A stretch of DNA of 64,000 nt from Parcubacteria group bacterium M6-OD1-1. GTDB taxonomy: Bacteria > Patescibacteriota > Minisyncoccia > GWC2-36-17 > M10-OD1-4. Every line of letters starts with the position of its first letter. The stretch's first letter is position 1. Location: the NCBI GenBank assembly GCA_003056085.1, contig LSNK01000003.1, positions 2,744 through 66,743 of the forward strand, read 5' to 3'. Position numbers and translations under genes: made by a program. This document shows, piece by piece, positions 1 through 45,490 of the stretch. The notes beneath the pieces are model-generated. The model did not search any database, was not told the origin of the DNA, and saw only the letters and a program-made list of their open reading frames with translations.

Positions 1-3000
1 GCAGAAGTATTTGTTGTTGTGTCTCCACTGTCTACTATTGATGTGTCTGTGTTTGCATCTGCTTCGGCATCAGTTGTTATGTTTGTGGACTCATCATCGG
101 TCGTTGTTGTACTTGTGTCCGATTCATCAGTTGTTGTCGTATCTGCCGCAGAAGCATCGTCGGTTGCAGAAGTGTCGGTTGTTGTTGTGTCTCCGCTATC
201 TGCTGTTGTGTCTGTACTTGTATCTGTACTTGTATCTGCCCCACTATTTACTGATGTATCCGTTCCACTTTCTGTTGTTTCGTCTACTCCACTGTTGTTT
301 AAATCTGTCGCCTCATTTTCGGCTTCTGTTGTTGTTCCTGTCACATCTTCATCAGGACTTAAAAATCCTATTGCAGAAGCTTCCAAAATAGACTTGAGCT
401 GGTCTTTTGTAATACAGAGATCATCTATACAAAGCTTCTTTGTTTTTACTTGGTCAACCTCTATTTGTTTTGCTGTTATCTTTCCAAGCTCATCTATGCC
501 CCAAGCGCCTGAAGCGCTAGCAAGCGCTTTAATGTTTTTAATTTCTTTATTATTTAAATTAAGCGAGTACTGCCCGATGTATGCCGTTTCCCCTTGGTCT
601 GTGTTTATCATCCAAGGATTTGCTGTATTTTCTTCTGCGATATTTTCTGAAATACTGCTATATTTGCTACTTCCTCCTACATTTGCAAACATCATTACTT
701 TTCCAATTTCAGGACTATCATAATTTTCCAAAGCAATACCAAGAACCTTTCCTGTAGAAAATTCTGAACTCAAAGCCACAGCAACTCCGGAAATACTTGA
801 AGCCGTAAGTGTATCGCCTGTTTTTATTACGCCTGAAACTTTAACAGGAATTCTACCTTGTAAAGCAACCGGCAGACCATTTGTTGTTGAATATCCAAGA
901 GTAAATCCAGGTTTTGTTGAGATGACACCTACAGCATTTTTATATTTATCATTTGCCTTAACTATTCCGAAACTATCTTTAAAATCTATTGTTGTTGAAG
1001 CAGTTAAAATGTCTTCTGTTATTGCAACAACATCACCCGCCTCAAGCCCATCCTCAAAAGCTTGATATTTCTCTGCAAGGTCAGCCTGCTGAATAGTTAA
1101 ATTATCAGCATATATTGTTCCGCCTGTTGTACCGCATGCTCCTGCAACAGTAACGCACAAGGAACCTTGAACAGATAAAGTTGAGACAGGACTTGTTGTC
1201 GCAATACCAACTTTTCCACTATCAAGTACGGTAAATAAAGTACTTGAGGCGGAGTCTACAATTTCTAAAGCAGAAACTCCAGAAGTTCCATTCCCCCAAA
1301 CCGAAAGCTTAGCATAAGGTGAAGTTGTTCCGATGCCGATGTTCCCGCTTGAAAGTGTTGCACCTGCTCCATCAAGCCCAGTACCAAAAAGGAGATTACC
1401 TATGTTTAATGTGTTTGCGCTTGATGTACTTATAGCATCTATATTGTAACCAAGAATAATATTGTTTCCTCCTATTGTTAAGTTATCTCCTGCTTGGTAA
1501 CCCAGGAGAATATTGTTGTTTCCTGTTGCTAAAGCGGAACCTGCTTGGTAACCGAGAAATACATTATTTTGAAATGTTGTATTATTCCATCCCGCTCCAA
1601 GTCCCGCTCGGTAACCTACAGCTGTATTTCCATATCCTGTATTGTTGTAACGCATAGCATTTACACCTATCGCTGTATTTTCATACCCTGAAATATTGTA
1701 ATATTGAGCAAGTCTACCCACAGCTGTATTACTATATCCTGTAGTATTATTTCGAAGAGACTGACTACCAACGGATGCATTGTCAGCTCCTGTAGTGACA
1801 TAAAGGGATTCAAAACCAATAGCTGTATTATCAGATACTGAAACAGTATAACGAAGAGCTTTATAACCTATAGCTGTATTTTGATATCCTGTGGTGTTAT
1901 AGAAAAGAGAATCCTTACCAACAGCTATATTAGAATATCCTGTTGTATTTGAGTAAAGAGCTCTATCGCCATTAGCTGCATTTTCATATCCTGTTGTATT
2001 TGAGTAAAGAGCGGTTCTACCAATAGCTGTATTCATGTATCCTGTTGTATTTGCAGTAAGGGCTTGATAACCATTGGCTGTATTTCTATATCCTGTTGTA
2101 TTTGCAGCAAGAGCTTGATAACCATTGGCTGTATTTTCATATCCCACAGTATTTAAACTAAGCGCTTGATAACCAACCGCTGTGCTGCCGTCTGTTGAAG
2201 TCGCAACATTCAACGCTTGATAACCTAAAGCAGTGTTGTAAAACCCATCTGCAAGAAGCGCAGCTCCTGCTCCACTACCAACAAGTGTTGAGAAGTTTGT
2301 TGAAGAAGCGTAGAGTATTGTGTTCCCTGCTTGTTTGTAGCCTGAGTATTGGTCTGTGTTTATAAAGCCTGCTACAGAGAGTTTTGCGTATGGAGAGGTG
2401 GTACCTATTCCCAATCTGTTGTTTGTATCATCCCAGAAAAAGTTTGAGTTGTCTTGTGCTAAGTTTGAGCCGTTTGAGAAAACTACTGAACCTGCTGTTA
2501 GTGCTGTTGCAAAACTTTCTACATTTAAAGCAGATTGGTTTACAGATAGAACTCCTGATGCTGCTTGAAGTCCTGTTCCTGTTATGTCTGTTAAGTAATC
2601 AGAGCCAAGTGTGAATGCTGTTGTTGCGTTTAACATTGGAAGTGTTGAAGTTGCTGATGTTGAGGTTGCGGTAAAGTATTCTGAAACTGTTTCACCCACT
2701 ACTGAAAGCTTTGCGTAAGGGGAGGTTGTGCCGATGCCGATATTACCGGAATTTTTAACAATAAATAAATTACCACTGTCACCGACAGCAGCAGTAGAAG
2801 AAAGCATTAGTAAATCAGTTGCTCCACCATCCGCATTTATTTCCATACGAGCACCTGGGTTAGCCTCCCCAATGCCAAAATCCCCAGCAGTTGTTAAAAA
2901 AGCTACAGGGGTATTATTTGTTACAAAATTTAAATCAACATTTGAAAATGTTCCAAAATTCAGACCGGAAAGATTTACAAAGAAACCTCCTTCAATACCT

Positions 3001-6000
3001 ATTTTATTTTCAATTGTCATTTGTGCGTTATAAGAATTAGGATTTACATATAATCCATTATTAGAATTAGTCGGAGTCTGCCCACCGCCACCAATATGCA
3101 ATTCTTTAGTAGGACTCGCAGTTCCAATTCCAACATAACCCGTTGACCTATCATACACTATCCCACCACTACCAACATTAAACCCACCCGCGAAAGTTGA
3201 AGTTGCAGTTGTACTTGTCGCAGTAAAGTATTCTGCTACAGTTTCACCTACCACGGAAAGTTTTGCGTAAGGACTTGTTGTTCCGATGCCGACGTTGCCT
3301 CCACCTGTAGCAAACCATGCGCCGCCTGATGTGGTGAGTGAAGTTGATGAAGCGTATGTGAATGAAAGTCTGTCTGCGGATGGGTTGTATGTAAATGCTG
3401 ATTCCGATGCTAAAACGTCTGCCGCTGTTGTGTATAATACTGTGTTTGATCCTCCGAATGTTGAAAGTCCTGTGCCTCCATCTGCAACGGCGATATCTGT
3501 TCCGTTCCATACGCCTGAGGTTATTGTACCGAGTGATGTGATATTTCCCTGCACTGTTGTAGGAAGAGTTGAAGATATGGATGGAACTCCTGTTCCGCTG
3601 GTTATTAAAACTCCGTCATTTCCGGTTGTTATGGAAGCAAGTGCGTCTGCCGCTGTTGTGTAAAGCAGTGTGTTTGTTCCTCCAAATGTTGTGAGTCCTG
3701 TACCTCCTCTTGAAACCGCTAATGTTCCTGTTGTATCAGATATTGCGATTGCAAGAGAACTTGTTGCCGTATCAACCCAGCTTGTTCCGTTGTATGTTAT
3801 GACGTTACCGAATGCTACTCCTGTTGTGTCTACGTCTAAAAGGTCTGAAAGATATGAAGCTCCTACTCCTGCTCCTCCACTGTCTGATGAGCATACTAAA
3901 TATCCATTTGCATCTGTTGTTATCTTTCCTCCATTTCCAAGCCCTGAACAATCTATGGCTGCTATTTGAAGTCCTCCGCTTGAGAGTTTAACTCCATTTG
4001 CAAACGTTGAGGTTGCTGTTGTTGATGTTACATTAAGAAGGTTTGTTTGGATGCCTCCTGTGAATGTTGAAGTTGCAGATGTTGTTGCTGTATAGTTTGA
4101 GGCGACTACTTCTCCGACGACGGAGAGTTTGGCGTAGGGGGATGTTGTGCCGATGCCTGTATTGCCTGTGTTGTAATAAATATTAGATCCTGATGTTGTC
4201 CATTGTGAGAATAGGTTTGTTGAACCTTCCACTAAGTTGTCTGTGTTTATTGCAAGAGAACTTGTTGCCGTATCAACCCAGTCTGAACCATCCCATGTCA
4301 GTACATTGCCATATCCTACTCCTGATGTATTTACATCACTTAAATCTGAAATTGTGGCATTAAGTGAAATGGTGCTTCCTGTTAAAGAAAGTCCTGTTCC
4401 TGTCGCAAGGTCGGTATATGGTATCGCTATTGTTGAAGATGCTGTTGCTGTCCCTGAATTTAGATAAATAAATCCTGTTGAAGCGGAGAAGTCTTGACCT
4501 GTACCTCCTCTTGAAGCTGCAAGTGTCCCGGACCATTGTGATGTAAATGTATGGGTGGCTCCTGAACTTGTTATTGTTAGTCCTATATTTGTATCACTTG
4601 ATGTTGCAAAAGTTTGAGAACCTGACAAAAGACCATTTAAAGAAGTTATCCCATCTCCTATTCCAAGACATGTTCCATCGGGTTTCGTAAAGCACCCTGC
4701 TGAAATTGAGATTCCATTTGCAAACGTTGAGGTTGCTGTTGTTGATGTTACATTAAGAAGGTTTGTTTGGATGCCTCCTGTGAATGTTGAAGTTGCGGAT
4801 GTTGTTGCTGTATAGTTTGAAGCGACTACTTCTCCGACGACGGAGAGTTTGGCGTAGGGGGAGGTTGTGCTGATGCCGACGTTGCCTGTTGTACGATATA
4901 CATTGCCGCCAGAAGCACTCCAAGTCCCGACGGATCCGCCTATAAGTGAACCATTCCAATAAAGATCACCCGATGAGTCATTATAAAGTCTATTTGTTGT
5001 TACAGAGGGTGATGTGGCGCTAAAATATATCGGACCATTAACTGATAAAACATCTGTCGGCGATGAAGTTCCAATACCAATATTACCTGAACCATCAATA
5101 ACAAATCTGTCATTTGTTCCAAGTTTGGAAGAAGAGGCAATTTTAAATGAGCCTCCGTCAGAAAAATCAGAACCTATTGACCACTTATAATCCGAAGTAC
5201 TTGTAGAAGAAAAAGTAAGAACGGCATCTGCGCTTGATGTGGCGATGGTAAATGCCGTTGATGTTGCTTGTGTAAATATTGCCGTTGAAGAAGTTGCTGA
5301 ACCTATCGGGGTTGCGTCTATGCTCCCGCTGCCTATCGTTAAACCATCAACAACATAAGAATCGATTATACAATCTGTACACCCTCCTCTTGAAGCCACC
5401 GTACTAAGATCCGATGAATTGGTTATCGTCAAACCGCTTATGGAAATATCCGTACCAGCAGCCAAACTAAGCGCGCCTGTCTCGCCCTGCAAAGAACTAA
5501 CACCGGAAGAACTGACAAAAACAGAACGCCCGGACCCACCCGAAGATGAAATGACCGGATTTGAAGCAGTTCCTGTTATGGTTATATTCGAACCTGCAGT
5601 TATTTTGTTTATTATGTTAGATGCAAAAACTTTTCCTTCTCCCGCATTGATGTCAGTGTTATTGGTTGTTATTCCTCCGAAAGCCTCCATGACACCACGC
5701 GCGGTAATTTTGTTTCCAACATCAAGACTTCCAGTTATAGCCGCGCCTCCTCCTAAGCTAAGACTTCCTGATCCTGCAATATTCCTGCCAACCGTAATAT
5801 TTTTTGAAAAAACACTATTACCTGAAACATTAAGATCTAAGAGCGCAGAAAGATTTCTTGCTGTAAATGACCCTCTCACTGTTCCCGTCCCTTCAACCGT
5901 TATAGATCTCCCTATATTGGCGGAACCTCCGGTAATGAGTGATCCTTGAGAATTTACATTACCTGAAATTGAAAGACCACTGCCAATATCAACACCTGCG

Positions 6001-6800
6001 TTTATCTCAAGAACTTTAAATAAATTTTCTTCTTGATTTGATTTAATATCTTTGACAACTTCTTTTCTTGGTTGCAGCTGCTCCTCTGTAGTTGTACTTG
6101 TTTTTGTTTCTAAAACTTCCTGTGAAATATTTTTTTGTTCTTTAACTTTTTCAACGGTACTTGGTTTTTCTTCAATCTTTTTTCCAAAAAACCATTCTCT
6201 TATATTTTTTGCTATGCCGGTAAAAATATTTGCAGAAATATTTACATTTTCTTTTTTGGTCAAAACAAAACCATCGGCTGCAGAAGCAATTCTTGAAGAA
6301 TCACCCTCTGACAAAAATACTATGGAACTTCCGATATCAAAACCTGTGGACTCTGAAATTATTTTAGTAAAATTATGTCTTAAATAATTTTCATTTGCTT
6401 TTATAAATTTTACGGACTGTCCAAGTAAAATACCAAAAATAATAAAAACCCCCACATACATGACGGTTGTTTTTTTAGAAAATACTTTACTCAAAAAAAT
6501 CTCCTTAGCTAAAATTAGTTTTTTGTTTTTTAACGTCTGGGGATTTTTTTGGAATTTATTGTATTCTTGTTTTTGTTTTTGAGAAAGTTCTTTTTTTTGT
6601 TTTTGTTTTTTCTTGGTGTTTTGCTTCAAAAAAACTTCAAATGCATCTTCCTTTACATACCAAGAATTTCCAACTTTTTTCCCTTCCAATTTTCCCTGCC
6701 GACACAAACGAGAAATGTAGTCGTGAGTAAAACCACACCTTGAACCGGCATGCTTTGAAGAGATATATTTTTTCTTTTCAAAATAGAGAATTTTATCCAT
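1..6800 (-). CDS. Giant multi-domain membrane/surface protein, truncated at the window edge (more than 2266 aa in window). It has an N-terminal excisionase-type HTH, a Lys-rich linker, a TM helix and an extracellular tail-fibre-like body. That body carries GIGTTSPYAKLSV repeats, Hep_Hag-like repeats and an acidic Thr/Asp/Ser-rich C-terminal tail.
   Basis: The minus-strand frame (codon low-coordinates congruent to 0 mod 3) has no stop between the TAG at 6837-6839 and position 1. I checked this codon by codon over 6462-6836; the rest follows from the absence of any reported minus ORF in this frame. ATG at 6800 gives MDKILYFEKKKYISSKHAGSRCGFTHDYISRLCRQGKLEGKKVGNSWYVKEDAFEVF (HTH_17/excisionase-like), then a K/Q-rich linker. 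Alternative starts are TTG 6494 (strong AAGGAG SD 6 nt upstream) or ATG 6461, followed by the TM helix VMYVGVFIIFGILLG. Repeated SGNIGIGTTSPYAKLSV motifs occur (e.g. around 2706-2750, 3240-3300, 4130-4160, 4850-4880). NTxGYxNTAxGYxAL repeats are encoded around 1560-2290. All plus-strand ORFs in 11-6400 are antisense artefacts. Confidence 0.6.
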   Translation of the reverse strand, partial: MDKILYFEKKKYISSKHAGSRCGFTHDYISRLCRQGKLEGKKVGNSWYVKEDAFEVFLKQNTKKKQKQKKELSQKQKQEYNKFQKNPQTLKNKKLILAKEIFLSKVFSKKTTVMYVGVFIIFGILLGQSVKFIKANENYLRHNFTKIISESTGFDIGSSIVFLSEGDSSRIASAADGFVLTKKENVNISANIFTGIAKNIREWFFGKKIEEKPSTVEKVKEQKNISQEVLETKTSTTTEEQLQPRKEVVKDIKSNQEENLFKVLEINAGVDIGSGLSISGNVNSQGSLITGGSANIGRSITVEGTGTVRGSFTARNLSALLDLNVSGNSVFSKNITVGRNIAGSGSLSLGGGAAITGSLDVGNKITARGVMEAFGGITTNNTDINAGEGKVFASNIINKITAGSNITITGTASNPVISSSGGSGRSVFVSSSGVSSLQGETGALSLAAGTDISISGLTITNSSDLSTVASRGGCTDCIIDSYVVDGLTIGSGSIDATPIGSATSSTAIFTQATSTAFTIATSSADAVLTFSSTSTSDYKWSIGSDFSDGGSFKIASSSKLGTNDRFVIDGSGNIGIGTSSPTDVLSVNGPIYFSATSPSVTTNRLYNDSSGDLYWNGSLIGGSVGTWSASGGNVYRTTGNVGISTTSPYAKLSVVGEVVASNYTATTSATSTFTGGIQTNLLNVTSTTATSTFANGISISAGCFTKPDGTCLGIGDGITSLNGLLSGSQTFATSSDTNIGLTITSSGATHTFTSQWSGTLAASRGGTGQDFSASTGFIYLNSGTATASSTIAIPYTDLATGTGLSLTGSTISLNATISDLSDVNTSGVGYGNVLTWDGSDWVDTATSSLAINTDNLVEGSTNLFSQWTTSGSNIYYNTGNTGIGTTSPYAKLSVVGEVVASNYTATTSATSTFTGGIQTNLLNVTSTTATSTFANGVKLSSGGLQIAAIDCSGLGNGGKITTDANGYLVCSSDSGGAGVGASYLSDLLDVDTTGVAFGNVITYNGTSWVDTATSSLAIAISDTTGTLAVSRGGTGLTTFGGTNTLLYTTAADALASITTGNDGVLITSGTGVPSISSTLPTTVQGNITSLGTITSGVWNGTDIAVADGGTGLSTFGGSNTVLYTTAADVLASESAFTYNPSADRLSFTYASSTSLTTSGGAWFATGGGNVGIGTTSPYAKLSVVGETVAEYFTATSTTATSTFAGGFNVGSGGIVYDRSTGYVGIGTASPTKELHIGGGGQTPTNSNNGLYVNPNSYNAQMTIENKIGIEGGFFVNLSGLNFGTFSNVDLNFVTNNTPVAFLTTAGDFGIGEANPGARMEINADGGATDLLMLSSTAAVGDSGNLFIVKNSGNIGIGTTSPYAKLSVVGETVSEYFTATSTSATSTLPMLNATTAFTLGSDYLTDITGTGLQAASGVLSVNQSALNVESFATALTAGSVVFSNGSNLAQDNSNFFWDDTNNRLGIGTTSPYAKLSVAGFINTDQYSGYKQAGNTILYASSTNFSTLVGSGAGAALLADGFYNTALGYQALNVATSTDGSTAVGYQALSLNTVGYENTANGYQALAANTTGYRNTANGYQALTANTTGYMNTAIGRTALYSNTTGYENAANGDRALYSNTTGYSNIAVGKDSLFYNTTGYQNTAIGYKALRYTVSVSDNTAIGFESLYVTTGADNASVGSQSLRNNTTGYSNTAVGRLAQYYNISGYENTAIGVNAMRYNNTGYGNTAVGYRAGLGAGWNNTTFQNNVFLGYQAGSALATGNNNILLGYQAGDNLTIGGNNIILGYNIDAISTSSANTLNIGNLLFGTGLDGAGATLSSGNIGIGTTSPYAKLSVWGNGTSGVSALEIVDSASSTLFTVLDSGKVGIATTSPVSTLSVQGSLCVTVAGACGTTGGTIYADNLTIQQADLAEKYQAFEDGLEAGDVVAITEDILTASTTIDFKDSFGIVKANDKYKNAVGVISTKPGFTLGYSTTNGLPVALQGRIPVKVSGVIKTGDTLTASSISGVAVALSSEFSTGKVLGIALENYDSPEIGKVMMFANVGGSSKYSSISENIAEENTANPWMINTDQGETAYIGQYSLNLNNKEIKNIKALASASGAWGIDELGKITAKQIEVDQVKTKKLCIDDLCITKDQLKSILEASAIGFLSPDEDVTGTTTEAENEATDLNNSGVDETTESGTDTSVNSGADTSTDTSTDTTADSGDTTTTDTSATDDASAADTTTTDESDTSTTTTDDESTNITTDAEADANTDTSIVDSGDTTTNTS
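1560..2290 (-). repeat. Tandem 42-51-bp coding repeats encoding 14-17-aa NTTGYxNTAxGYQAL (Hep_Hag/YadA-head-like) units
   Basis: e.g. 2041-2091 and 2092-2142 are near-identical 51-mers (cctgttgtatttgcag.aag.gcttgataaccattggctgtattt..atat); more degenerate copies flank them. Confidence 0.7.
3992..4160 (-). repeat. Intragenic direct repeat copy A (about 170 bp); near-identical copy B lies exactly 720 bp downstream
   Basis: Lines 3961-4160 and 4681-4880 align base-for-base with about 3-4 mismatches (ccatttgcaaacgttgaggttgctgttgttgatgttacattaagaaggtttgtttggatgcctcctgtgaatgttgaagttgc...). Confidence 0.85.
4712..4880 (-). repeat. Intragenic direct repeat copy B (about 98% identical to 3992-4160)
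   Basis: Direct comparison of sequence lines; encodes a repeated protein module of the giant protein. Confidence 0.85.
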
Positions 6801-7486
6801 AAAATATTTCAGAATTTCTTGGGTCGTATTCCCGAACTAACTATAGTTTAACACGAAAAGTCGCCTAAGTTAAAACTAAAAACAACAAAATCTGTGGATA
6901 AAAAATAATGTTTGTTTTTTAGTAAAATATACTAAATTATCAACCTCAGAATTTCATTTTTAAAAAGCCTAACATTGCTATAAAATAAAATTAAAAGTCG
7001 TCTAAACGAACAGACGACCTTACCCCTTTTAGAGATAAAATGATCTAAATTTTACAATTTATAAATACAAAATAGAATTAATTTGGAAGCAAGGCTTCCA
7101 AATTAAAAGGTTTTAAGATTTTAAGATTTAAAAGCTTAAGGACTTAAATATTTAAACTTTTAAATATACCTGTATTTATTTCTTCAAAATATATAATTTT
7201 AAGCAACAAACTACAATAAAGCACAAACTTCTGTTTATAAGGCTTATATTCTATTTTTTGAGTTTTAATTTGGCATATTTTGTATTTTTTTGACTTTGTG
7301 ATTTACAATCACATTATTTGAAAATCAGTAATTTATTGTAATTTTACTGCAAAAACACCCTATCCAAAATAAATAAGATGCTTTTGTTTGAAATTCTAAA
7401 TTTAGTCTATTTTATTAGTTATTTCGCCTTAACGAACTGGTTAATTTTGTTCGTTATACTATAAAAATAATCAAAATACTATTAAA

Positions 7487-7525
7487 AAACCCCACTTGGA
7501 GACCTCATCTCCAGGTGGGGTTAAT
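7487..7525 (-). terminator. Rho-independent terminator downstream of atpC (13-bp stem ccccacttggaga/tctccaggtgggg, then U-run on minus strand)
   Basis: Inverted repeat with one G-U wobble, A6 run on plus strand immediately 5' (equals U-run on minus-strand transcript). Confidence 0.6.
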
Positions 7526-7540
7526 TATAGAATATTACTA

Positions 7541-7822
7541 TTATGACTCTATCTGAGTAAATATTAAAACATCATTTCCATGCACTTGCATCACAGCGCT
7601 ATCAAATGAAAACTCCTTTTCTCCTTCTGATGCACTACGAACGATAATCGGGATTTTTTCTTTAATTAAAGTAATAAAATTTGCATGCTGGGGAAGAATA
7701 TCAAAAGGACCGGAAGCGTTTTTTGAAGATATGGAATACGCCTTCCCTTCCCATAATATTTCATTGGGATTTAGAATTTTTACAGACAATAATTCTGATG
7801 TATTTATTTTGGTTTTAAACAT
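7541..7822 (-). CDS. atpC: F-type ATP synthase epsilon subunit
   Basis: 93 aa; GPFDILPQHANFITLIKEKIPIIV matches the F1-epsilon beta-sandwich motif (ILPxHAPLxTxLKPG); follows atpD. Confidence 0.75.
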   Translation of the reverse strand: MFKTKINTSELLSVKILNPNEILWEGKAYSISSKNASGPFDILPQHANFITLIKEKIPIIVRSASEGEKEFSFDSAVMQVHGNDVLIFTQIES

Positions 7823-8067
7823 ACCTTTAAGCTACAATTTAGGAAGTAGGAAGTTAAAATAAATTTTCAATTTATACTTTTGAATTTTGATTGAATTTTT
7901 AAAAAATAACCAAGATACAAGAAACAAGTTACAAACAAAATATAATAATCAAATTCCAAGTTAAAACATGATGCCGTTTTGATTATTGATTTTTAGAATT
8001 TGTTTGTTACTTGGGATTTGTTTCTTGTTACTTTATCTTCTATTCAAAATTAAAGTTTAAAGTTTAT

Positions 8068-10279
<2,212 letters not shown>

Positions 10280-10289
<10 letters not shown>

Positions 10290-11728
10290 ATTTTTTCTAA
10301 AATTTCTGTCTTCGTTTCAATATGTTTAATAAACTCATCTAAAGATATTTCTTCTTTTGCAAGTTTTCTGGTGTCGTTAAAATTTGGATCTTCTCTAAGT
10401 GATTCAATTAATATTTTTTTATATTTATCTAAAAATACTTCTTCTTTATCTAATAAAAAAGGAATGAAAGCCAAGGAAAGCAGCATTATTTGAACATTTG
10501 ATAAAACTTCATCAAAAGGATTTTGTCTTAACAACTCTTTTAAAAGTGAGCCTTGGTGTAAAATTTTCTGAGTTCTGCTGCTTACTTGCGACCCGAACTG
10601 GCTATATTCTTTTTGTCTTTCATATTCTGAAAGAAGAACCAAAACACGGTTTGCTAATTGTCTTTGTAAAATAGTTTGAGTATGACTTCCCACACGTGTT
10701 ACCGACTGCTCTACACTAATAGATGGATAATGTCCTTGTGCGCGCAATGCTGAAGAAAAAGAAAAATGACCGTCAGTTGCTGACATGATATTAGTAGGAA
10801 TCAAGTCTGTGCTGCTCTTTATACCTATTTCAAGAACAGGTAAAAGAGTAATAGAGCCACCTCCATATTTGTCATTGAAATGCCCGGAACGCTCCATAAG
10901 ATGAGCATGCTGATAAAACATATCTCCAGGATATGATTCACGACCCGGTAAACGTTCTTCAAGCAATGCTATTTCACGAACATATTTTGCATGTGTGCTT
11001 AAATCATCCAAAATAAGCAAAACATTTTTTCCTTGCTTGGAAAAGTGCTCGGCTATTGAAAATGCCACGGATGGTGCTATGGAAATAAGAGATGGCAAAT
11101 CACTTGAAAGAGCTCCTAAAACAATTGTATTCTTACCGCCATTTTTCTCAAATATACTTGAAGCAATTCTACCAACGGCATCAAGAGATTTGCCGATAGC
11201 CGCGTAGATGCAAACTGTATCCGTATCCTTTTGATTAATCACAGCATCTTTTAAAAATGAGGTTTTCCCGCTTCTTGGGGGTCCAAACACAAGTTGTCTT
11301 TGACCCATTCCAAGTGGAAATAAAACATCAACAAATGTAAGCCCTGTCAAAAACTGATCTTTTATTTCTTCTCTTGAACTAATTCCTGAGGCTATCACAT
11401 TAAGCTCAAGAGAGGTATTGTTTTCCGGGAAGCCTCCTTTGCCATCAATGCTTTTCCCAAGAGCATTGATAATGCGACCAAATAGATGATCTCCAAAAGA
11501 AAATATTTTCTCGCTTCCGCGCAGAAAAAAACGATCTCCCGGTTTTTTAAAAACAGAATCCAGCATAAGAGCTTTCACATGATCTTTTTCAAGTGAAATT
11601 ACAAGGGCCTTATTCCCATCTTCATCTCTTAAAATATTATTTATTTTTGCAGACGGCAAACCCTCAAGCGCAATCAAATATCTTTTTGCGCTAACCACAA
11701 GCCCAACTTCATTTTCATTTATTTCCAT
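10280..11728 (-). CDS. atpA: F-type ATP synthase alpha subunit
   Basis: GQRQLVFGPPRSGKTSFLKDAVINQK (P-loop), IYAAIGKSLDAVGRI, 482 aa. Confidence 0.9.
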
Positions 11729-12294
11729 TATTTTGATTGATTAAATTGATTGATCATACTAATAATTTCTTCTTCTCTTTTTTTAACAGAATTTTTAAAA
11801 GAAAAATTATAATAAATACTATTCCACACAAAAGCGCAACCCGCGACAATAGAAGAATCAACTTCTACATCCATAAATATATTTTCATTTATATTTTTGC
11901 GAAACCACTCCCCCAAATGAGAAATCTCGTCATCTGAGAACTTAACGGGCAAGTAAATTTTTATATTTGGAAGAAGATTAATATCGTTGGTTATTTCTTT
12001 TAAAATATACTGAAAGTTCTCTGTATTGAATTTAGTATAAAAATCATCTCCGTAACTCAAAAGATCATTGATTATTTTTTCAGATTCTCCACCCTCTTTT
12101 TCTTTTAAAAAATAACTCAATAGTTCTTTTGTTGCTTGAGTTTTATTTAAAGAAAAAAATGTATATTCAAAAAATTCCTTAAGCAAAGCCACTTTATGGT
12201 AAAAACCTGACTTTGTGTATGTATTGTTTATAATTTTATATGTTTGATTATTCATTTGAATTTTTGCTATCAAAAATATTTTCTTTTTTTGCAT
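11728..12294 (-). CDS. atpH: F-type ATP synthase delta (OSCP) subunit
   Basis: 188 aa, operon position between b and alpha; C-terminal VDSSIVAGCAFVWNSIYY resembles the OSCP C-terminus. Confidence 0.55.
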   Translation of the reverse strand: MQKKKIFLIAKIQMNNQTYKIINNTYTKSGFYHKVALLKEFFEYTFFSLNKTQATKELLSYFLKEKEGGESEKIINDLLSYGDDFYTKFNTENFQYILKEITNDINLLPNIKIYLPVKFSDDEISHLGEWFRKNINENIFMDVEVDSSIVAGCAFVWNSIYYNFSFKNSVKKREEEIISMINQFNQSK

Positions 12295-12967
12295 CTTCTA
12301 AAGCCTTATAAACAAGATCTGTATGATCTGACATTGATAATTCTTTCTGAAGCGCAATGGAAGCGGTTTTTTCAACTAAAGCTACTATTTGCTTATCAAC
12401 AAAATCCATTCGTTTTTTTTGATAATTATCAATTATCTTTTTTATTTCTTCAAGCTCTCCATTTAAATATTTATCTACTTTAGTCGCGCTTTCTTTTTCA
12501 AATTCTGAAAGTGTTTCTTTTATTTCATCCATTATACTATCCATTTTCTTTTCTGCTGTTTCTTTGTTTTCCTCAACGCGTTTTTGAAAAGAAAGTGAAA
12601 ATTTAGAATACATTTCTTCCGCTTTTTTTGCTGATTGTGAAATTGAGTCTTCTATTTCTTGAGTTAATTTATCAAGATGTTTTTTGTAGGATGATTCTAT
12701 TTTTTTGTTTGTAATTTTTCCATTTGAAATAAGTCTTATACTTTCAAGCTCAGCTTCAACAAGTATTTTTTGCGCCTCTTTTTGAGCATTTCCTATAATT
12801 TTTTGGGACTTGCTCTTTGCCTTTTTTATCATACGGCCATAAATAGGATAAGTAAGATCTCTTATTTGTCCATTGCTTTTAAAGTACATAAACAAAAAAA
12901 CAAGAACTAAAAAGGCCAACAAAGACACAAGACCAATAAGTAAATAAAAAATTAAAAAATTTGTCAT
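12248..12967 (-). CDS. atpF: F-type ATP synthase b subunit (long form)
   Basis: N-terminal TM helix (LIFYLLIGLVSLLAFLVLVFLF) followed by a long charged coiled-coil; operon position. Confidence 0.6.
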   Translation of the reverse strand: MTNFLIFYLLIGLVSLLAFLVLVFLFMYFKSNGQIRDLTYPIYGRMIKKAKSKSQKIIGNAQKEAQKILVEAELESIRLISNGKITNKKIESSYKKHLDKLTQEIEDSISQSAKKAEEMYSKFSLSFQKRVEENKETAEKKMDSIMDEIKETLSEFEKESATKVDKYLNGELEEIKKIIDNYQKKRMDFVDKQIVALVEKTASIALQKELSMSDHTDLVYKALEDAKKENIFDSKNSNE

Positions 12968-12978
12968 AAAAAAAATTA

Positions 12979-13854
12979 TTAAAATATTACTATTATCACA
13001 CTTATAAATATTCCCACAACGCCTATCATTAAAGCTACAATTGAATTTAAGATAATAACGGACCAGACAGATGATTTTGCAAGCGGATTTCTTCCTATTG
13101 AGATAATGCTTCTGTCTACTGCGGACATAAAATTTTTAAAAGCTGCAAATATAGCACCAAATGCGATAAGAGCTGCAATAATATATTTTATGATATTAAC
13201 CTTTGTTTCATCTTCAATTCCTCCAAATATTCCCACCTTACCGCCTTCGCTGTTACTTACCAATTCGTTTAAAAAAGGAATGCTTTTATCCGTTGATGAA
13301 TCCGAAGCGGCGATACCAACATCAAGAAGCACTTTTATGCTTCCTGTCACGATATTTTTTCCATCTATGATTTCTGTTTTTACTCCTTCTGTCTTTTCAT
13401 CAAAAGGCTCGAGTGCAACTCCTAATATGTACGAATCTTTTTTAACAACCTTCTGCCCCTTCCCCGGGACATCAGAAGATGTAATGTTGTCTCCTGGCTG
13501 TATGGGACCTCCTTCCAATGTTACATTTACCAATACTTGGCCGGACCTTACTACTGGAATCTTATTTGTTTCCGTCCTTAAAACCAAAACAGGGTTTTCT
13601 ACGGTAATTCCAAAAATATCCTCATCCCCAACCTTGCGAGACAAACTATAGACTCCATTTTTTTTATCATAGGAAATTATATCTCCGAAAAGAACATTAT
13701 CATCGGTGATGGTATATGTTAAAGCAACATTAAGGTCACTTTTTTGAGCATGCGAAAAAGGAACAAACAATATAACGCTTGTTGCTAAAACTAATAATAC
13801 TGTTAAATTAATCAAAATGCGAAACTGCATGTATAAAAATAAAAAACTTGGCAA
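12979..13854 (-). CDS. Secreted/periplasmic domain fused to a C-terminal c-subunit-like two-helix hairpin. It occupies the atpE/atpB position of the operon but lacks the conserved carboxylate.
   Basis: Signal peptide (SHA|QK). An approximately 190-aa soluble domain is followed by IIAALIAFGAIFAAFKNFMSAVDRSIISIGRNPLAKSSVWSVIILNSIVALMIGVVGIF. This is a G/A-rich helix, an RNP loop (compare ARQPE), and a second helix with no Asp/Glu. Confidence 0.4.
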   Translation of the reverse strand: MPSFLFLYMQFRILINLTVLLVLATSVILFVPFSHAQKSDLNVALTYTITDDNVLFGDIISYDKKNGVYSLSRKVGDEDIFGITVENPVLVLRTETNKIPVVRSGQVLVNVTLEGGPIQPGDNITSSDVPGKGQKVVKKDSYILGVALEPFDEKTEGVKTEIIDGKNIVTGSIKVLLDVGIAASDSSTDKSIPFLNELVSNSEGGKVGIFGGIEDETKVNIIKYIIAALIAFGAIFAAFKNFMSAVDRSIISIGRNPLAKSSVWSVIILNSIVALMIGVVGIFISVIIVIF

Positions 13855-14031
13855 ATAAGCTGCGAAACTTTTTTCACTTGTTTTTATTTTAACATATAGC
13901 CACTACAGAATAAATAGTATATTTTAATATTAACCCGACATTACAAAGCAAGGTGCTATATTCAAAAAAAACAGTTTAATAAATGGCTTTTTTATGCTAA
14001 AATAGTTAAATTATGATGGATTTATCCTGAA

Positions 14032-16868: not shown

Positions 16869-17558
16869 TTACCGCACATAACAATTTTTAACATATTTTT
16901 TTAATTCTTCTGCTAACTCACTTAACTCATTATCCGAATATGAAGATTCTTTTTTTAAAGCAGGTTCAATTAATTTTGTCGGAATAAATTTCTGTAAGAA
17001 ATAATTTTCCGCACCTTTGATTTCTTGCGCAATTTTTCTTAAATCATCTTTACTTAGAATAGACTTTACAATAGTTGTTCTAAACTCATATCCAACACTT
17101 GAGCTCATTAAAAGACTTATACTTTTTTTTAATTTTTCAACCGGGATTTGCCACCCTATGACTTTTGAATATTTCTTCAGCGGCGCCTTGATATCCATAG
17201 CAACATAATCAACTAATTTTCTTTTAATAAAGTTTTCTAAAACCTCCGGCCTGCTGCCGTTACTGTCTAATTTTACCAAAAAACCCATTGCTTTTATGTT
17301 TTCTATCATTTCAGATAAATCCGCATGCTGTGTTGGTTCACCTCCGGTAATGCACACCGCATCAAGTTTCCCGCGCCTATTATTTAAAAAATCATAAACT
17401 TCTGAAAGCGAAATTTCCGCGGTGTATCTTTCAGGAATAACCAATTCCGGATTATGGCAATACCTACAACGAAAATTACAACCAATCGTAAAAATTATTG
17501 CTGAAGTTTTACCCGGATAATCTATCAAAGAAAATTTTTGCAATCCACCAATAATCAT
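16869..17558 (-). CDS. nrdG: Anaerobic ribonucleoside-triphosphate reductase activating protein (radical SAM)
   Basis: CNFRCRYCHNPEL radical-SAM cluster motif; 229 aa; overlaps nrdD stop by 4 bp. Confidence 0.85.
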   Translation of the reverse strand: MIIGGLQKFSLIDYPGKTSAIIFTIGCNFRCRYCHNPELVIPERYTAEISLSEVYDFLNNRRGKLDAVCITGGEPTQHADLSEMIENIKAMGFLVKLDSNGSRPEVLENFIKRKLVDYVAMDIKAPLKKYSKVIGWQIPVEKLKKSISLLMSSSVGYEFRTTIVKSILSKDDLRKIAQEIKGAENYFLQKFIPTKLIEPALKKESSYSDNELSELAEELKKYVKNCYVR

Positions 17559-19645
17559 ACCGTTGTTTTATATGTTTCTCGTATATCAAATTCAGCTTTT
17601 TTACCGTCATTCCACTGCATTGTTGGGCGCAAGTAACCAACGATTCTTGAATACACCTCGCACGAGCTCTGACATTTGTCACAAACTTTTATCTCTCCTG
17701 AAATATATCCATGATTTTTACAAACGCTAAAGGTTGGTGTTAAAGTAAAATAAGGCAACTCATAATTTTCACATATTTTTCTCACTAAATTTTTAACACT
17801 TTCTCCGTCTCTTATCATTTCACCAAGAAAAAAGTGTAAAACCGTACCTCCGGTATATTTTGTCTGCAAACTATCTTGCAACTCTAAGGCCTCAAAAATA
17901 TCTTCTGTAAAATTAACAGGTAAATGTGTTGAATTGGTGTAAAATGGACTTTCTACGTCATCGCCTTTTCCATTGGCAAAGTTTGCATTTTCATATTTTT
18001 TTTGATCAAGAAGGGCCAGTCTAAATGATGTCCCTTCTGCCGGAGTTGCTTCAAGATTATAATTATTGCCGGTTTCTTTTTGAAAAGAAACCATTGTGTT
18101 ACGCATATAATCAAGCACTTTTTCTGCAAATTCTTTGCCTTTTGTTGTGGTTATTGTTTCTCCAAAAAGATTTTGCGTTGCTTCGCTCATCCCTACAAGA
18201 CCAATAGTAGAAAAATGATTTTCCCAATATTTCCCATAAGAAGATTTTATTTTTCTTAAATAAAATTTAGTATATGGATATAGTCCGCTATCAGTAAACC
18301 GTTCTAATACTTTTCTTTTTATTTCCAAACTTTCTTTAGCTAAAATCATTAATTCTTTCAATTTATTAAAAAATTCTTTCTTATTTTTTGCATCAAGAGC
18401 AATACGCGGTAAATTTATAGTTACAACCCCGATTGATCCTGTTAAAGGATTTGCACCAAAAAGCCCTCCACCGCGTTTTTGTAATTGTCTGTTATCTATT
18501 CTCAATCTACAACACATTGAGCGGGCATCATCAGGATCCATATCGGAGTTGATAAAATTTGAAAAATAGGGTAAACCATATTTCCCTGTTGCCTGCCATA
18601 ATAATTTAATGGAATCATTATCCCAATTAAAATCTTTTGTAATATTGTAAGTTGGAATTGGAAATGTAAAAACGCGGCCACTGGCATCTCCCTCCGACAT
18701 TACTTCTAAAAATGCTTCATTAAACATATCCATCTCTTTTTGAAATTCATGATATGTTTCTTTTTGCGGCTTGCCGCCGACTATAACCGACTGCTTTGCA
18801 TAATGCTTTGGAACCGTTAAATCTAAAGTGACATTTGTAAACGGCGTCTGAAAACCAACACGAGTTGGAACGTTAATATTAAAAATAAATTCTTGAAGAG
18901 CTTGCTTGACTTCTTTGTACCTTAATTTATCATATCTTATAAACGGAGCCAGCAAAGTGTCAAAATTACTGAATGCCTGGGCTCCCGCGGCTTCACCCTG
19001 TAAAGTATAGAAAAAATTAACAACCTGCCCAAGAGCAGACCGAAAATGCTTTGGAGGCTTGCTTGACACTTTGCCCTCAACTCCCTTAAAACCTTCCGCC
19101 AATAAGTCAAAGAGATCCCAGCCGACACAATAAACTGAAAGCAAATTTAAATCATGAATATGAAAATCACCATTTATATGAGCATTCTTGCTATTATCGG
19201 GATAAATTTTATTTAACCAATAATTCTTGCTTATTTCACTGGAAATATAATTATTTAAGCCCTGTAATGAATAGGACATATTGCTGTTTTCCTTAACCTG
19301 CCAATCAGTTTTGTGTAAATACTGCTCAACAAAATTATTATTAAAAGAATTATTAATATCTCTTAATTGTTTGTGTTGTTCTCTGTATAAAATATAAGCC
19401 TTGGCGGTTTTTTTAAATTTTGAACGCAATAAAACATTCTCGACTATATCTTGAATTTGTTCAACTTTAGGAATTTTGTCTTTTATGGTTTTATCAGCGC
19501 AATTTACAACTTTTTTTGTCAGTTCATTTGCTTCTTTAGAGCCAAATTCATCGGTTGCCTTCCCGGCCTTTATGATTGCAATAACAACTTTTTTTATATT
19601 AAAAGACACTGTCCTGCCGCTTCTTTTTTTTATTTGCTTATACAT
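17555..19645 (-). CDS. nrdD: Anaerobic ribonucleoside-triphosphate reductase, class III
   Basis: 696 aa; N-terminal ATP-cone-like region; C-terminal glycyl-radical motif SRIVGYLRP and Cys-rich Zn ribbon (CDKCQSSC). Confidence 0.88.
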   Translation of the reverse strand: MYKQIKKRSGRTVSFNIKKVVIAIIKAGKATDEFGSKEANELTKKVVNCADKTIKDKIPKVEQIQDIVENVLLRSKFKKTAKAYILYREQHKQLRDINNSFNNNFVEQYLHKTDWQVKENSNMSYSLQGLNNYISSEISKNYWLNKIYPDNSKNAHINGDFHIHDLNLLSVYCVGWDLFDLLAEGFKGVEGKVSSKPPKHFRSALGQVVNFFYTLQGEAAGAQAFSNFDTLLAPFIRYDKLRYKEVKQALQEFIFNINVPTRVGFQTPFTNVTLDLTVPKHYAKQSVIVGGKPQKETYHEFQKEMDMFNEAFLEVMSEGDASGRVFTFPIPTYNITKDFNWDNDSIKLLWQATGKYGLPYFSNFINSDMDPDDARSMCCRLRIDNRQLQKRGGGLFGANPLTGSIGVVTINLPRIALDAKNKKEFFNKLKELMILAKESLEIKRKVLERFTDSGLYPYTKFYLRKIKSSYGKYWENHFSTIGLVGMSEATQNLFGETITTTKGKEFAEKVLDYMRNTMVSFQKETGNNYNLEATPAEGTSFRLALLDQKKYENANFANGKGDDVESPFYTNSTHLPVNFTEDIFEALELQDSLQTKYTGGTVLHFFLGEMIRDGESVKNLVRKICENYELPYFTLTPTFSVCKNHGYISGEIKVCDKCQSSCEVYSRIVGYLRPTMQWNDGKKAEFDIRETYKTTV

Positions 19646-19963
19646 AAGACTTTTTTTGAATTAATTATTAAAAAAACTTGGCTAAAACGCCAAGCATCAA
19701 ACAATATCCAATATAGTCTTGAGACTTAAACGCGAGCCGAGAGCGGACTAATGCAGTCAAATTGTATGAGACCGGACTTTAACCGTTGCGCGACAGTGAG
19801 GGAATCACACCCTACTTCATCATACAAACCGCTATCTATAATTTTGTAAATACATAATAGCACAAAAAAATAATTTTCCAAAATCTTATATTTTTTGGTT
19901 TTTTGCCTTTTTTAAAAATTAAATTAAAATATTTCCAAATTTTTTCAATTAAATCCCTTCCTT

Positions 19964-34225: not shown

Positions 34226-34231
34226 TGCCCG

Positions 34232-34304
34232 TCCACCCTCCTGGACTTGAACCAGGGACCGCCGAGATATAAGCTCGGTGCTCTACCGACTGAGCTAAGG
34301 GTGG
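34232..34304 (-). tRNA. tRNA with anticodon UAU (tRNA-Ile2-like, decoding AUA); C1:G72, discriminator A, no CCA
   Basis: Reverse complement CCACCCTTAGCTCAGTCGGTAGAGCACCGAGCTTATATCTCGGCGGTCCCTGGTTCAAGTCCAGGAGGGTGGA; anticodon stem CCGAG/CTCGG, loop CTTATAT. Confidence 0.65.
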
Positions 34305-44900: not shown

Positions 44901-45490
44901 AAAACACTATTTCCCCAAGCAAAACCGGACCATGTTCCATTTTGAAATACCGTCACTCCAAGATTAGTGTCCATAAATTGAATCCATCCATCCCAATTTG
45001 GGTCAACTAAAGATGAACATGAAATTGAGGTGCAAGCACTCAAAACCCTCGCCCATCCTATAATTCTATTTGTACTTGAATCTAATTTCGCAAGATAATT
45101 ACTGTTTGTAAATTGACTGTCAAAAGAAGCGTTTCCAGTCGTTGGAGGATCTCCTGTTTCTAATCTTTCAAAACTTATCCAGCCAACATTATCTGACCAA
45201 GCATGCCCTATTACGGTTCTTGCAGGAATGTTTAAAGCCCCTGACTCACTATCCATAACTATGTGAGTCCCCCAATTATTTGCGCAATCTGCAACTTGAT
45301 CACTCAAATTTTGTGATGCCGCCTCACTGCTATGACATGAAAAACTTATCCAACCAATATTATCTGACCAAGCCCAACCTCTTATATTATTATATTCCGT
45401 TCCATTTATATCTATAGCTTCAGAAAAACTCGGCATTAAAAAAAATGCAAAAAGAAAAATTAAAGTAAAAATTTTGAAAATACAACTCAT
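41915..45490 (-). CDS. 1191-aa secreted Cys-rich multi-domain protein. It has N-terminal G(W/H)AWSDN(I/V)GWISF repeats and a PKD domain. A long disulfide-rich body follows, ending in a TrbC/VirB2-like pilin hairpin (a putative pilus-displayed adhesin).
   Basis: Signal peptide; RGWAWSDNIGWISF / IGHAWSDNVGWISF / WDGWIQF / LGWIEF repeats; PKD-like SYFWNWGDSTTSTGAVVSHTYNAEGNYTIILTVTD; more than 90 Cys; C-terminus ILQWFAWLVAVFAVVYGLRGGYTYITSAGDAAKLELAKRYIIYTMVGVVVAVLSFSIIAIARSVAGI. Confidence 0.65.
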   Translation of the reverse strand: MSCIFKIFTLIFLFAFFLMPSFSEAIDINGTEYNNIRGWAWSDNIGWISFSCHSSEAASQNLSDQVADCANNWGTHIVMDSESGALNIPARTVIGHAWSDNVGWISFERLETGDPPTTGNASFDSQFTNSNYLAKLDSSTNRIIGWARVLSACTSISCSSLVDPNWDGWIQFMDTNLGVTVFQNGTWSGFAWGNSVLGWIEFDSSSVVYTGDPLNTISQNTAPVASMVVSPSITQSNNDSFNFFVEADASASYDTDLGETATLSYFWNWGDSTTSTGAVVSHTYNAEGNYTIILTVTDINGAIDTVTQSVSFVSPDLNACLITCSNDSQCPGDNTCFIPNGNTSGFCIASPQASTNPQTILPTGDSQSLSPYDCALSLRQPNVLSVCSPFIEACPQIGFYSNGNACSPGEYIFSTDFSLSEFSCGKNAVLGDFCIGPELEICPESGICPLDGTTCTAGEAKCRAAVEDAVYNCVDDSGVSRGTIIDTLIVPSEKPLMPIGLQSGGEACTQPTQNAPNNCEGINGCLYYNYDSYGNPVDRNSFVDCTTDAPLELSGCIYYGENGEIVNVCDEKYPTGCIYYEDGLTNCLPSGSLAGIPAGCNISTQGFETIADCTADTVTSNSGAGCIFSSNGAIDCTNPNSQGRSYSGYVYNPNPEYGISYKGISNDTALGPDFVDCVLTDVSVGSVINPQDACSSDGSCPNQGDVCLNGTCVSTCDPNVSDACDIGASCVAPCGEGEIWNSTTGQCEPASWLTIPQCDGAYVKETQTSDPMNVFLNLPVGITQAYIGLATDENVNCKYSTNPEDTFNSPTMTLFGATGLLSHETLVTGLFPLPDINRYLIRCENTTTGEETSACQIPVRVGEACTVDADCTGGSICLDSGYCGLPACSGSNPPAGTIYPSGTINTNIGMTSGVASVCKFDTNYYDQNGGFINFFTMENTFSTIDNISHSESVSGLVEGYNAYYVQCQDLAVNINTGQQNLSNKCQITFEVGGDNNTPTVGNCDPGTICANGAICPENGVCPTCPAGTVYNSNSGSCDFVTSCTPGTICPDSSVCPQDGICGGDPCPLGTSFNIITGICETGSNQLTGSSGSVCNVLGIEFQGTAPGTGIGPSQNCSIVAVLLAILQWFAWLVAVFAVVYGLRGGYTYITSAGDAAKLELAKRYIIYTMVGVVVAVLSFSIIAIARSVAGI

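Follow-up and report, generated by a model that had tools for sequence, protein, structure and literature searches.

Several groups of described proteins share part of the architecture considered here. Phage tail fibres and tailspikes of the S74 class (K1F endosialidase and T5 pb1 type), together with their bacterial 'tail fiber domain-containing' relatives, have a Gly/Thr/Ser-rich repetitive shaft with GNxGIGTxxP units, and phage tail fibres are anchored by their N-terminus, the C-terminus being the distal end. ToxR, TcpP, CadC and VtrA join an N-terminal cytoplasmic DNA-binding domain to one transmembrane (TM) helix and a small extracytoplasmic sensor domain, and RodZ consists of a cytoplasmic N-terminal helix-turn-helix (HTH) domain, a basic linker, a single TM helix and an external C-terminal part. 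The membrane-anchored HTH of RodZ binds a protein, MreB, and not DNA. Trimeric autotransporter adhesins (YadA, Hep_Hag) are giant surface proteins with short repeats. Here, we analyse a giant gene on the minus strand of a 64,000-nt stretch of contig LSNK01000003.1 from Parcubacteria group bacterium M6-OD1-1 (hereafter, the window); the gene starts at position 6800 and encodes an HTH_17-type domain, a charged linker and one TM helix in fusion with an extracellular, fibre-like body. By analogy, the protein resembles a tail fibre that is anchored in a cell and headed by a bitopic N-terminus of the ToxR or RodZ type, and it fails the defining tests for S74 fibres, trimeric autotransporter adhesins, ToxR-type (OmpR winged-helix) regulators and RodZ. 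Its kinds of components are already known; the combination of HTH_17, TM helix and fibre, the scale on which it occurs and the promoter elements of the genes are, as far as the searchable literature goes, not described.

The minus-strand frame is free of stop codons from 6836 down to position 1, a TAG at 6839-6837 closes it upstream, and the first canonical start is the ATG at 6800. With the 2,266 in-window residues as query, a search of a protein collection returned P0002, a protein of 2,355 amino acids (aa) from an 82,402-bp NCBI contig that is 100% identical over the window part and continues for 89 aa beyond it. The C-terminus, which the sequence-only reading had proposed to recover by extending the contig, was taken from this full-length entry; the Logan and metagenome contigs with atpC end inside the giant gene. 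Logan assembly L001, derived from a public read set, matches the window base for base over 12,003 bp, a stretch comprising rbfA, infB, the atp operon, the intergenic spacer that follows it and the first 656 codons of the giant gene with the HTH and the TM helix, and its gene caller likewise placed the start at ATG 6800. Frame, gene caller and identical assembly thus bear out the open frame and the start codon that had been read from the letters. The same reading had considered an alternative start at 6494 or 6461 behind a strong Shine-Dalgarno (SD) sequence, and this part did not hold. An SD-like 4-mer occurs within 20 nt before the start in 3 of the 46 window genes, and a typical leader, that of ATG 6800 among them, is A/T-rich. 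In a genome that is essentially SD-less, the lack of an SD before ATG 6800 is no anomaly, and the internal AAGGAG says nothing about the start. This AAGGAG (6505-6500) is a Lys-Glu codon pair in a Lys-rich linker, and in the syntenic orthologues described below AAGGAG occurs at unrelated positions, in linkers of differing length. The G+C content of the giant gene (39-43%) exceeds that of the window (30-35%), the excess lying wholly in codon positions 1 and 2, and its G+C at third codon positions is 0.246, compared with 0.241 +/- 0.018 for 18 other genes. Since this value equals that of the genome, the gene is native, and a foreign origin was ruled out. The giant open reading frame (ORF) is one genuine native gene, and ATG 6800 is its start codon.

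The gene is flanked by housekeeping genes (the atp operon, infB and rbfA), and the named relatives of its product and of other window proteins belong to Patescibacteria. Two metagenome contigs, L029 and L030, carry syntenic orthologues, with a giant gene downstream of the same atp operon; the products of atpA, atpG, atpD and atpC are 60-78% identical to those of the window (78% for atpD), and those of the giant gene are 45-49% identical over the first 500-600 aa. Both orthologues keep the HTH, linker, TM helix and body as one continuous ORF, which answers the earlier question of whether related genomes retain the HTH-TM fusion. By segment, identity to the orthologues is 72-77% in the HTH, 30-38% in the linker and TM helix, ~30% in the following spacer and 41-63% in the body, so that the HTH is the best-conserved segment. 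The fusion of HTH, TM helix and fibre is genuine because the genome is SD-less, the ORFs of the orthologues are continuous, the HTH is conserved and the same N-terminus is found on other giants. On the same grounds, we rejected the reading of the HTH as an unterminated upstream ORF or the result of a frameshift.

The N-terminal cytoplasmic domain (aa 1-60, 6621-6800) had been read as HTH_17/excisionase-like, and fold and structural neighbours agree with this. An AlphaFold model based on a 6-sequence alignment reached a pLDDT of ~94 over aa 10-80 and shows the elements E4-7, E10-14, H15-22, H26-35, E40-43, E46-50 and H51-, that is, a beta-hairpin, two helices, a beta-hairpin wing and a long helix that runs through the linker into the TM segment, the order expected of the HTH_17 fold (beta-hairpin, helix-turn-helix, wing, C-terminal helix). 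The top Foldseek matches in the PDB were TraN of pIP501, the Xis of mycobacteriophage Pukovnik, BldC, DNA-bound RacA and RdfS, with a probability of ~1, a TM-score on the target of 0.55-0.8, a root-mean-square deviation of 1.6-2.5 A and E-values of 0.03-0.3 for this 50-residue domain. On the basis of the model, aa 1-60 are thus shown to fold as an excisionase/MerR-like winged HTH. In Pfam, HTH_17 (PF12728) scored 26.4 bits on aa 22-61 when aa 1-113 served as the query, and 20.7 bits in the full protein, at a gathering cut-off of 27; the NCBIfam model 'excise' scored 13.6 against a cut-off of 28.8. All ten family members that were scanned are above the HTH_17 cut-off, with 27.8-61.3 bits. Across 288 aligned family domains, the near-invariant positions are A18, D27, Y28, L32, R34, G36 and W47, giving the signature D27-Y28-x-x-x-L32-x-R34-x-G36 ... 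W47. The domain has a net charge of +6 in the giant protein; the mean for the family core is +2.8, and the domain is basic in 89% of the members.

A Lys/Gln-rich helical linker follows (aa 61-113, 6462-6620) and then, as had also been noted from the sequence, a single TM helix (aa 114-134, 6399-6461). The linker contains 32% Lys as well as the AAGGAG at 6505-6500, is modelled as a continuous helix (H51-85 and H88-139) and carries the family motif ELSxxxKxEY, with conserved columns at L72, S73, R76, E79 and Y80. The hydrophobic stretch at aa ~111-135 is the only strongly hydrophobic one in 2,266 residues and the only hydropathy peak above 1.6. The TM helix is, with high confidence, predicted to be an uncleaved signal-anchor (N-in/C-out), which would place the HTH inside and the fibre outside the cell. 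In this predicted layout, with a domain of DNA-binding type at the N-terminus, then one TM helix and then a C-terminal part outside the cytoplasm, the protein resembles ToxR, TcpP, CadC and VtrA. These regulators have an OmpR/PhoB winged helix (Trans_reg_C), whereas Pfam finds only HTH_17 here; their ectodomains are small sensors, whereas here a fibre of ~2,200 aa follows, and regulatory activity, including the one-component role suggested by the sequence-only reading, is putative. RodZ differs in its Xre-type HTH (HTH_25) and small RodZ_C domain, neither of which was found by Pfam in the giant protein, and it is a single-copy protein, whereas the HTH_17-TM family is highly paralogous. In the modelled structure, RacA, BldC, Xis/RdfS and TraN match aa 1-60 best, and RacA also has a long helix after the HTH and tethers the chromosome to the cell envelope, reaching the membrane indirectly via DivIVA. 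These proteins lack a TM helix and an extracellular part, and their sequence identity to the HTH is 10-20%.

Outside the membrane, the protein begins with a charged, low-complexity juxtamembrane spacer (aa 135-330, 5811-6398; ~30% identical to the orthologues, as given above), which probably crosses the cell wall, and a Gly/Ser/Thr-rich, solenoid-like segment (aa 331-560, 5121-5810) without a match to any Pfam family, which at 59-63% identity in the orthologues is second to the HTH alone. The fibre shaft (aa 561-1519, 2244-5120) is built of large units, each with GNxGIGTTSPYAKLSV. The sequence-only reading had counted at least five tail-fibre motifs, and the protein holds six exact and three degenerate copies of TTSPYAKLSV; the near-identical DNA repeats of 170 bp that it had placed 720 bp apart are a 192-nt pair within the shaft (3993-4184 and 4713-4904), 92% identical at that distance. 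The DNA repeat families in the shaft are D2, D3, D4 and D6-D8, and homologous bodies occur in P0003-P0033. The shaft is followed by an array of ~16 units of 17 aa (xxNTAxGYxALxxNTTG; aa 1520-1808, 1377-2243) with a 51-nt period, the units themselves spanning aa 1520-1790, and by two terminal GIGT units (aa 1809-1885, 1146-1376) with motifs at aa 1819 and 1862.

The C-terminal part of the in-window body comprises three further segments. A domain of the form 'ADLAEKY...GDVV...GRIPVKV...GDxLT' (aa 1886-2090, 531-1145), without an assigned family, is common to P0020 and in part to P0005; a Pfam and PDB sequence search with this module returned nothing significant, with Phage_cement below threshold and a weak XM1_gp53. 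The domain is homologous to the ectodomain of a 291-aa protein encoded at 12979-13854 (BLASTP 2e-7, hhalign 94%). This latter gene, on the minus strand, is the first of the atp cluster, and its product has an N-terminal signal or TM segment and a C-terminal two-helix hairpin whose 'IGRNP' loop resembles that of ATP synthase subunit c, helix 2 being without an acidic residue; a Pfam scan of the three genes heading the cluster gave no ATP-synt_A or ATP-synt_C match. Between the ADLAE domain and the tail lies a conserved block, ASGAWGIDELGKITAK...LCIDDLCITKDQLKSIL (aa 2091-2175, 276-530), with the consensus ASGAWxIDExGKITAK...LCxxDxCIT..QL, which recurs in P0020; the Cys block is also present in P0017 and P0030, there C-terminal to an S74 domain. 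The remainder is an acidic, low-complexity tail (aa 2176-2266, 3-275) of 25% T, 17% D and 11% S, confirming the Thr/Asp/Ser-rich composition that had been noted, and it continues for the 89 aa off-window.

How this body relates to known fibres can be stated in some detail. Peptidase_S74 (PF13884), which in phage tail fibres acts as an intramolecular chaperone, is found at the C-terminus of 17 of 32 body homologues, and most of these 32 proteins begin with a Sec signal peptide and not with the HTH-TM cassette; because homologous bodies carry signal peptides and 17 of them end in S74, the body lies outside the cytoplasm and belongs to the tail-fibre type. The 17-aa array matches the phage families PHROG 23837 (virion structural protein, E=9.3e-36) and PHROG 4636 (tail spike, E=7.4e-30), over aa 1568-1732 only. 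The giant protein itself has no PF13884 match (Pfam, E<=1), P0002 contains no SD.R.K / SDxRxK motif, and the ADLAE domain occupies the position in question. The motif had thus been rightly tied to S74 fibres at the level of the family, not of this protein. Phage fibres differ further in that they are mounted on a virion, whereas the giant protein would be anchored in the cell membrane by its TM helix and is encoded by a native chromosomal gene. With trimeric autotransporter adhesins it shares an adhesin-like, giant build and short Asn/Thr/Gly/Ala-rich repeats suggesting a solenoid head. The repeat period is 7 or 14 aa there and 17 aa here, and the giant protein is anchored at the N-terminus, has no C-terminal beta-barrel or outer-membrane context and ends in an acidic tail. 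The array that had been likened to Hep_Hag/YadA heads (NTTGYxNTAxGYQAL) is real as an array, but the protein has no Hep_Hag, YadA_head, stalk or anchor match (Pfam, E<=1), and over its full length it has no sequence relative in the PDB.

The architecture is not a one-off, and the protein is one member among thousands of clusters. A word-indexed protein search with the N-terminal 330 aa returned only one match, and we therefore ran an exhaustive HMMER search with a profile of HTH, linker and TM segment against 1.84 billion representatives (clusters at 50% identity). This yielded 11,054 matches at E<=1e-3, 3,688 at E<=1e-10 and 50 at E<=1e-30, and the window protein scored 182.9 bits (E=2.3e-49) against the family profile. 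We defined the family by the HTH signature D-Y-[IV]-x-x-L-[CA]-R-x-G ... W, a helical charged linker that contains LSxxRxxEY, and a TM segment at a distance of 60-330 aa from the N-terminus; the window protein has all of these, as well as a WWTCCACA box 30-130 nt before its start codon. Among the best 150 matches, a TM-like segment lies 60-330 aa from the N-terminus in 132, the remainder being mostly short fragments; 100 of the 150 are 250-450 aa long, and 20 have at least 1,000 aa, up to a maximum of 7,214 aa, nearly all with GIGTxxP motifs. Family ectodomains range from ~150 to more than 7,000 aa, and many members have two or three tandem HTHs. Genomes with the N-terminal signature were, in 18 of 19 cases, metagenome-assembled genomes (MAGs) of Saccharibacteria, Kaiserbacteria, Parcubacteria or Paceibacteria, and all 18 Patescibacteria loci show one or more HTHs followed by linker and TM segment. 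Giants with other bodies carry the same N-terminus (P0004, 1,451 aa; P0013, 2,395 aa; P0007, truncated); P0017 (2,627 aa) has two HTHs and an S74 domain, and P0030 (3,796 aa) has an S74 domain. A search of IMG/VR with the N-terminal module found no relatives, by which a viral origin of the HTH-TM cassette was ruled out. No paper was found on HTH_17-TM proteins or on TTATCCACA in the candidate phyla radiation (CPR), and the family is apparently very large, unnamed and not described in the searchable literature.

Family genes are frequently clustered. Three stand in a row in L023 (2408-7005), and in L004, L006, L007, L009 and L011 (~8400-13900) each single-HTH gene of 1,000-1,300 aa is directly preceded by a double-HTH gene of ~400 aa. 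In a short-form subfamily (280-380 aa), a 207-aa Peptidase_M50 gene is located directly upstream at all eight loci with a visible upstream gene (L003 at 9301-9924, L010, L012, L014, L015, L016, L025 and L026); these M50 proteins are 72-82% identical and represent one lineage. Downstream of the short-form HTH_17-TM genes are signal-peptide proteins, some with GIGT motifs, and comEC, a metallo-beta-lactamase gene and sodA are found nearby. No M50 gene is present in the 64-kb window or adjoining any giant-form gene.

The promoters of family genes share sequence elements. A DnaA-box-like box, TTATCCACA, is located at 6893-6901 on the minus strand, 93-101 nt upstream of the ATG, and is the only perfect 9-mer of its kind in the window; TTATCCACA is the textbook DnaA-box consensus. 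The family form is (T/A)(T/A)TCCACA, also (T/A)TATCCACA, and it lies upstream of the -10 element. At a distance of 30-130 nt, the 8-mer TATCCACA precedes 16 of 36 family genes and 1 of 193 other genes at the same loci (Fisher p=7e-14), WWTCCACA at -130 to -30 precedes 23 of the 36 and 3 of the 193 (Fisher p=2e-19), and the palindrome TCG-N5-7-CGA is found within 70 nt of the ATG in 13 of the 36 and 2 of the 193 (p=4e-10); many of the loci are related, so the independence assumed in these tests is overstated. Several first-pass 'control' matches to the box proved to be family genes. The box was found at 17 of 25 further metagenome loci, and the loci with a box are L003, L006, L010, L012-L016, L023, L025-L027, L029-L034, L036, L038, L043, L044 and L049. 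At other family loci, a -10 of the TGnTAnAAT type follows 31-32 or 40-42 nt downstream of the box, spacings that differ by one helical turn, and in some family promoters the box is repeated in inverted orientation (CCACA...TGTGG). In the window, the box lies ~45-60 bp upstream of a candidate extended -10, TGtTAAACTATAGT (6840-6853, with TATAGT at 6845-6840), which is predicted from the letters of the leader.

The palindrome of the window, TCGGGAATACGA (6824-6835), lies 23 nt ahead of the ATG, where the transcript is predicted to begin. The form TCG-N6-CGA occurs mostly before long-form genes, just downstream of the -10 (L004, L006, L007, L009, L011, L017-L021, L029, L030, L046 and L050-L052), and in the Saccharibacteria-type giants of L020, L021, L046 and L050 it is placed 22-24 nt before the ATG and the box is absent. 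As RNA, the palindrome in the window is not more stable than shuffled sequences (z=-0.49); it might act as a DNA operator or as an RNA 5' element. Since the presence of the box and the sequence of the recognition helix do not vary together cleanly, a separate reader of the box, with DnaA as the obvious candidate, appears at least as likely as the HTH itself.

Taken as a whole, the data are best explained, in our view with a probability somewhat above even, by a membrane-anchored host-contact fibre with a candidate DNA-binding cytoplasmic HTH. The uncleaved signal-anchor would keep the HTH in the cytoplasm and let the fibre project from the cell, fixed by its N-terminus, as a tail fibre is to the baseplate, and with the C-terminal module at the tip. 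The fibre would then serve attachment to, or recognition of, the host cell of an episymbiont, and by analogy with tail fibres we hold such an attachment or recognition organelle with moderate confidence. With lower confidence, we infer that the HTH binds double-stranded DNA because all of its closest structural relatives do, which would make the giant a membrane-tethered DNA-binding protein. The most plausible targets would be the conserved elements in the promoters of the family's own genes, which would fit regulation as in the ToxR-type proteins; binding there could provide feedback control, or could hold the locus at the membrane while the 7-kb message is translated and the product exported. 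Several observations speak against parts of this explanation. The HTH_17 score of the window protein is just below the Pfam cut-off; the box also precedes paralogues with a divergent helix (YSPEYLTRLVQSG; L005 at 1997, L013 at 1894) and is missing before Saccharibacteria-type genes with nearly the same helix; a 'recognition' helix conserved across many paralogues would also be expected from a common protein partner; the AlphaFold model of the C-terminal ADLAE module, from 3 sequences, has a pLDDT of 31 and the body was not modellable; and the two grounds for an adhesin role are the tail-fibre analogy and the lifestyle of cultivated relatives.

Patescibacteria, which are ultrasmall, account for much of bacterial diversity; they live on other microbes, to which they are attached, and possess very few regulators of the conventional kind. 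By what means they perceive their hosts and keep hold of them, and how gene control works with so small a set of regulators, is largely unknown, and the family bears on both questions. In its members, one TM helix hard-wires a domain of DNA-binding type to surface structures of very different size, the largest of 7,214 aa, and its genes have promoter elements of their own, one of which is identical to the DnaA box, so that the family might connect host contact with gene expression and perhaps with the replication cycle. Read most cautiously, it still defines how a major class of CPR surface fibres is anchored in the membrane. At the other end, the HTH_17-TM cassette might serve throughout Patescibacteria as a physical connection between DNA and the cell surface, an idea that we consider unlikely. 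The tethered HTHs would then read DnaA-box-like sites (TTATCCACA) and/or TCG-N6-CGA and would hold their own loci, possibly also a DnaA-box-rich origin, at the membrane beneath the host-contact fibres; if so, host attachment would feed directly into the control of transcription or replication.

Four other explanations have to be weighed against the host-contact fibre with a candidate DNA-binding HTH. The HTH could be a cytoplasmic docking module that, like that of RodZ, does not bind DNA, and that fixes the fibres to a partner or aids their insertion or sorting, the box being read by DnaA or another regulator. The cassette is found on hundreds of paralogues with unrelated ectodomains, often in tandem, as would befit a module for anchoring or sorting in general; helix 2 keeps its signature D-Y-[IV]-x-x-L-[CA]-R-x-G almost unchanged across paralogues, which is unexpected for paralogous regulators with different targets; and a box that equals the DnaA consensus and does not vary cleanly with the helix fits as well. 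Every close structural neighbour binds double-stranded DNA, however, the domain is basic in 89% of the members, tandem sets of two or three HTHs are common and typical of DNA-binding avidity, and no partner is known, so that we regard docking as possible but doubtful. The layout of one TM helix and a cytoplasmic HTH would also suit a membrane-tethered precursor from which a site-2 protease releases the HTH after fibre export or engagement, as in the regulated intramembrane proteolysis of anti-sigma factors or SREBP-type factors. The Peptidase_M50 genes directly upstream of the short-form genes would agree with such a mechanism, but the eight loci belong to one lineage, in which the adjacency may be inherited gene order, no M50 gene accompanies the window gene or other giant-form genes, and no cleavage motif was identified; we judge release by proteolysis to be quite improbable.

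The remaining two explanations question the gene itself. If the fibre started at TTG 6494 or ATG 6461, the HTH would belong to an unterminated ORF, a frameshift or an assembly chimera, and the AAGGAG 7 nt before the in-frame TTG could be taken as a signal for this. In an SD-less genome (3 of 46 genes), with the AAGGAG at unconserved positions in the orthologues, the fusion kept in the syntenic orthologues and dozens of other genomes and an identical independent assembly, two products or an artefact are very improbable; a start at 6461 would moreover strip the TM helix of its positive n-region, of which a start at TTG 6494 would keep four Lys. That the locus is a prophage or phage tail-fibre gene in the chromosome is suggested by the PHROG virion-structural and tail-spike matches and by the S74 chaperones on many body homologues, but we rejected this as extremely improbable, given the neighbouring housekeeping genes (atp operon, infB and rbfA), whose synteny is kept in the orthologues, the native codon usage, the N-terminal TM anchor, the absence of family members from IMG/VR and the lack of other phage genes nearby. 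The membrane-anchored host-contact fibre is thus the reading that we prefer over these four.

Upstream of the giant gene on the same strand, an F1-type atp cluster encodes homologues of the delta, alpha, gamma, beta and epsilon subunits (7541-12294). The spacer between atpC and the giant gene (6801-7540; 740 bp) is A/T-rich and contains three terminator-like minus-strand hairpins, at ~7520-7490, 7106-7078 and 7021-6994, the last with a GTCGTCT...AGACGAC stem; in L029 and L030, the corresponding spacer measures 1.3-1.6 kb. An Rfam search of the 740-bp region gave no family match, and the spacer may give rise to small transcripts.

Elsewhere in the window, a second large surface-type protein of 1,191 aa with PKD domains is encoded at 41915-45490 on the minus strand; its closest named relative, from a Patescibacteria MAG, is 53% identical, and the possibility that this ORF encodes RpoB was dismissed in favour of a PKD-domain surface protein. 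An AdoCbl-II (cobalamin) riboswitch on the minus strand (19759-19837; 40.3 bits against a gathering score of 36.5) lies directly upstream of a 696-aa ORF (17555-19645). ARAGORN identified a tRNA-Ile with the anticodon TAT (UAU) at 34231-34304 on the minus strand; tRNA-Ile(UAU) is an uncommon bacterial means of reading AUA.

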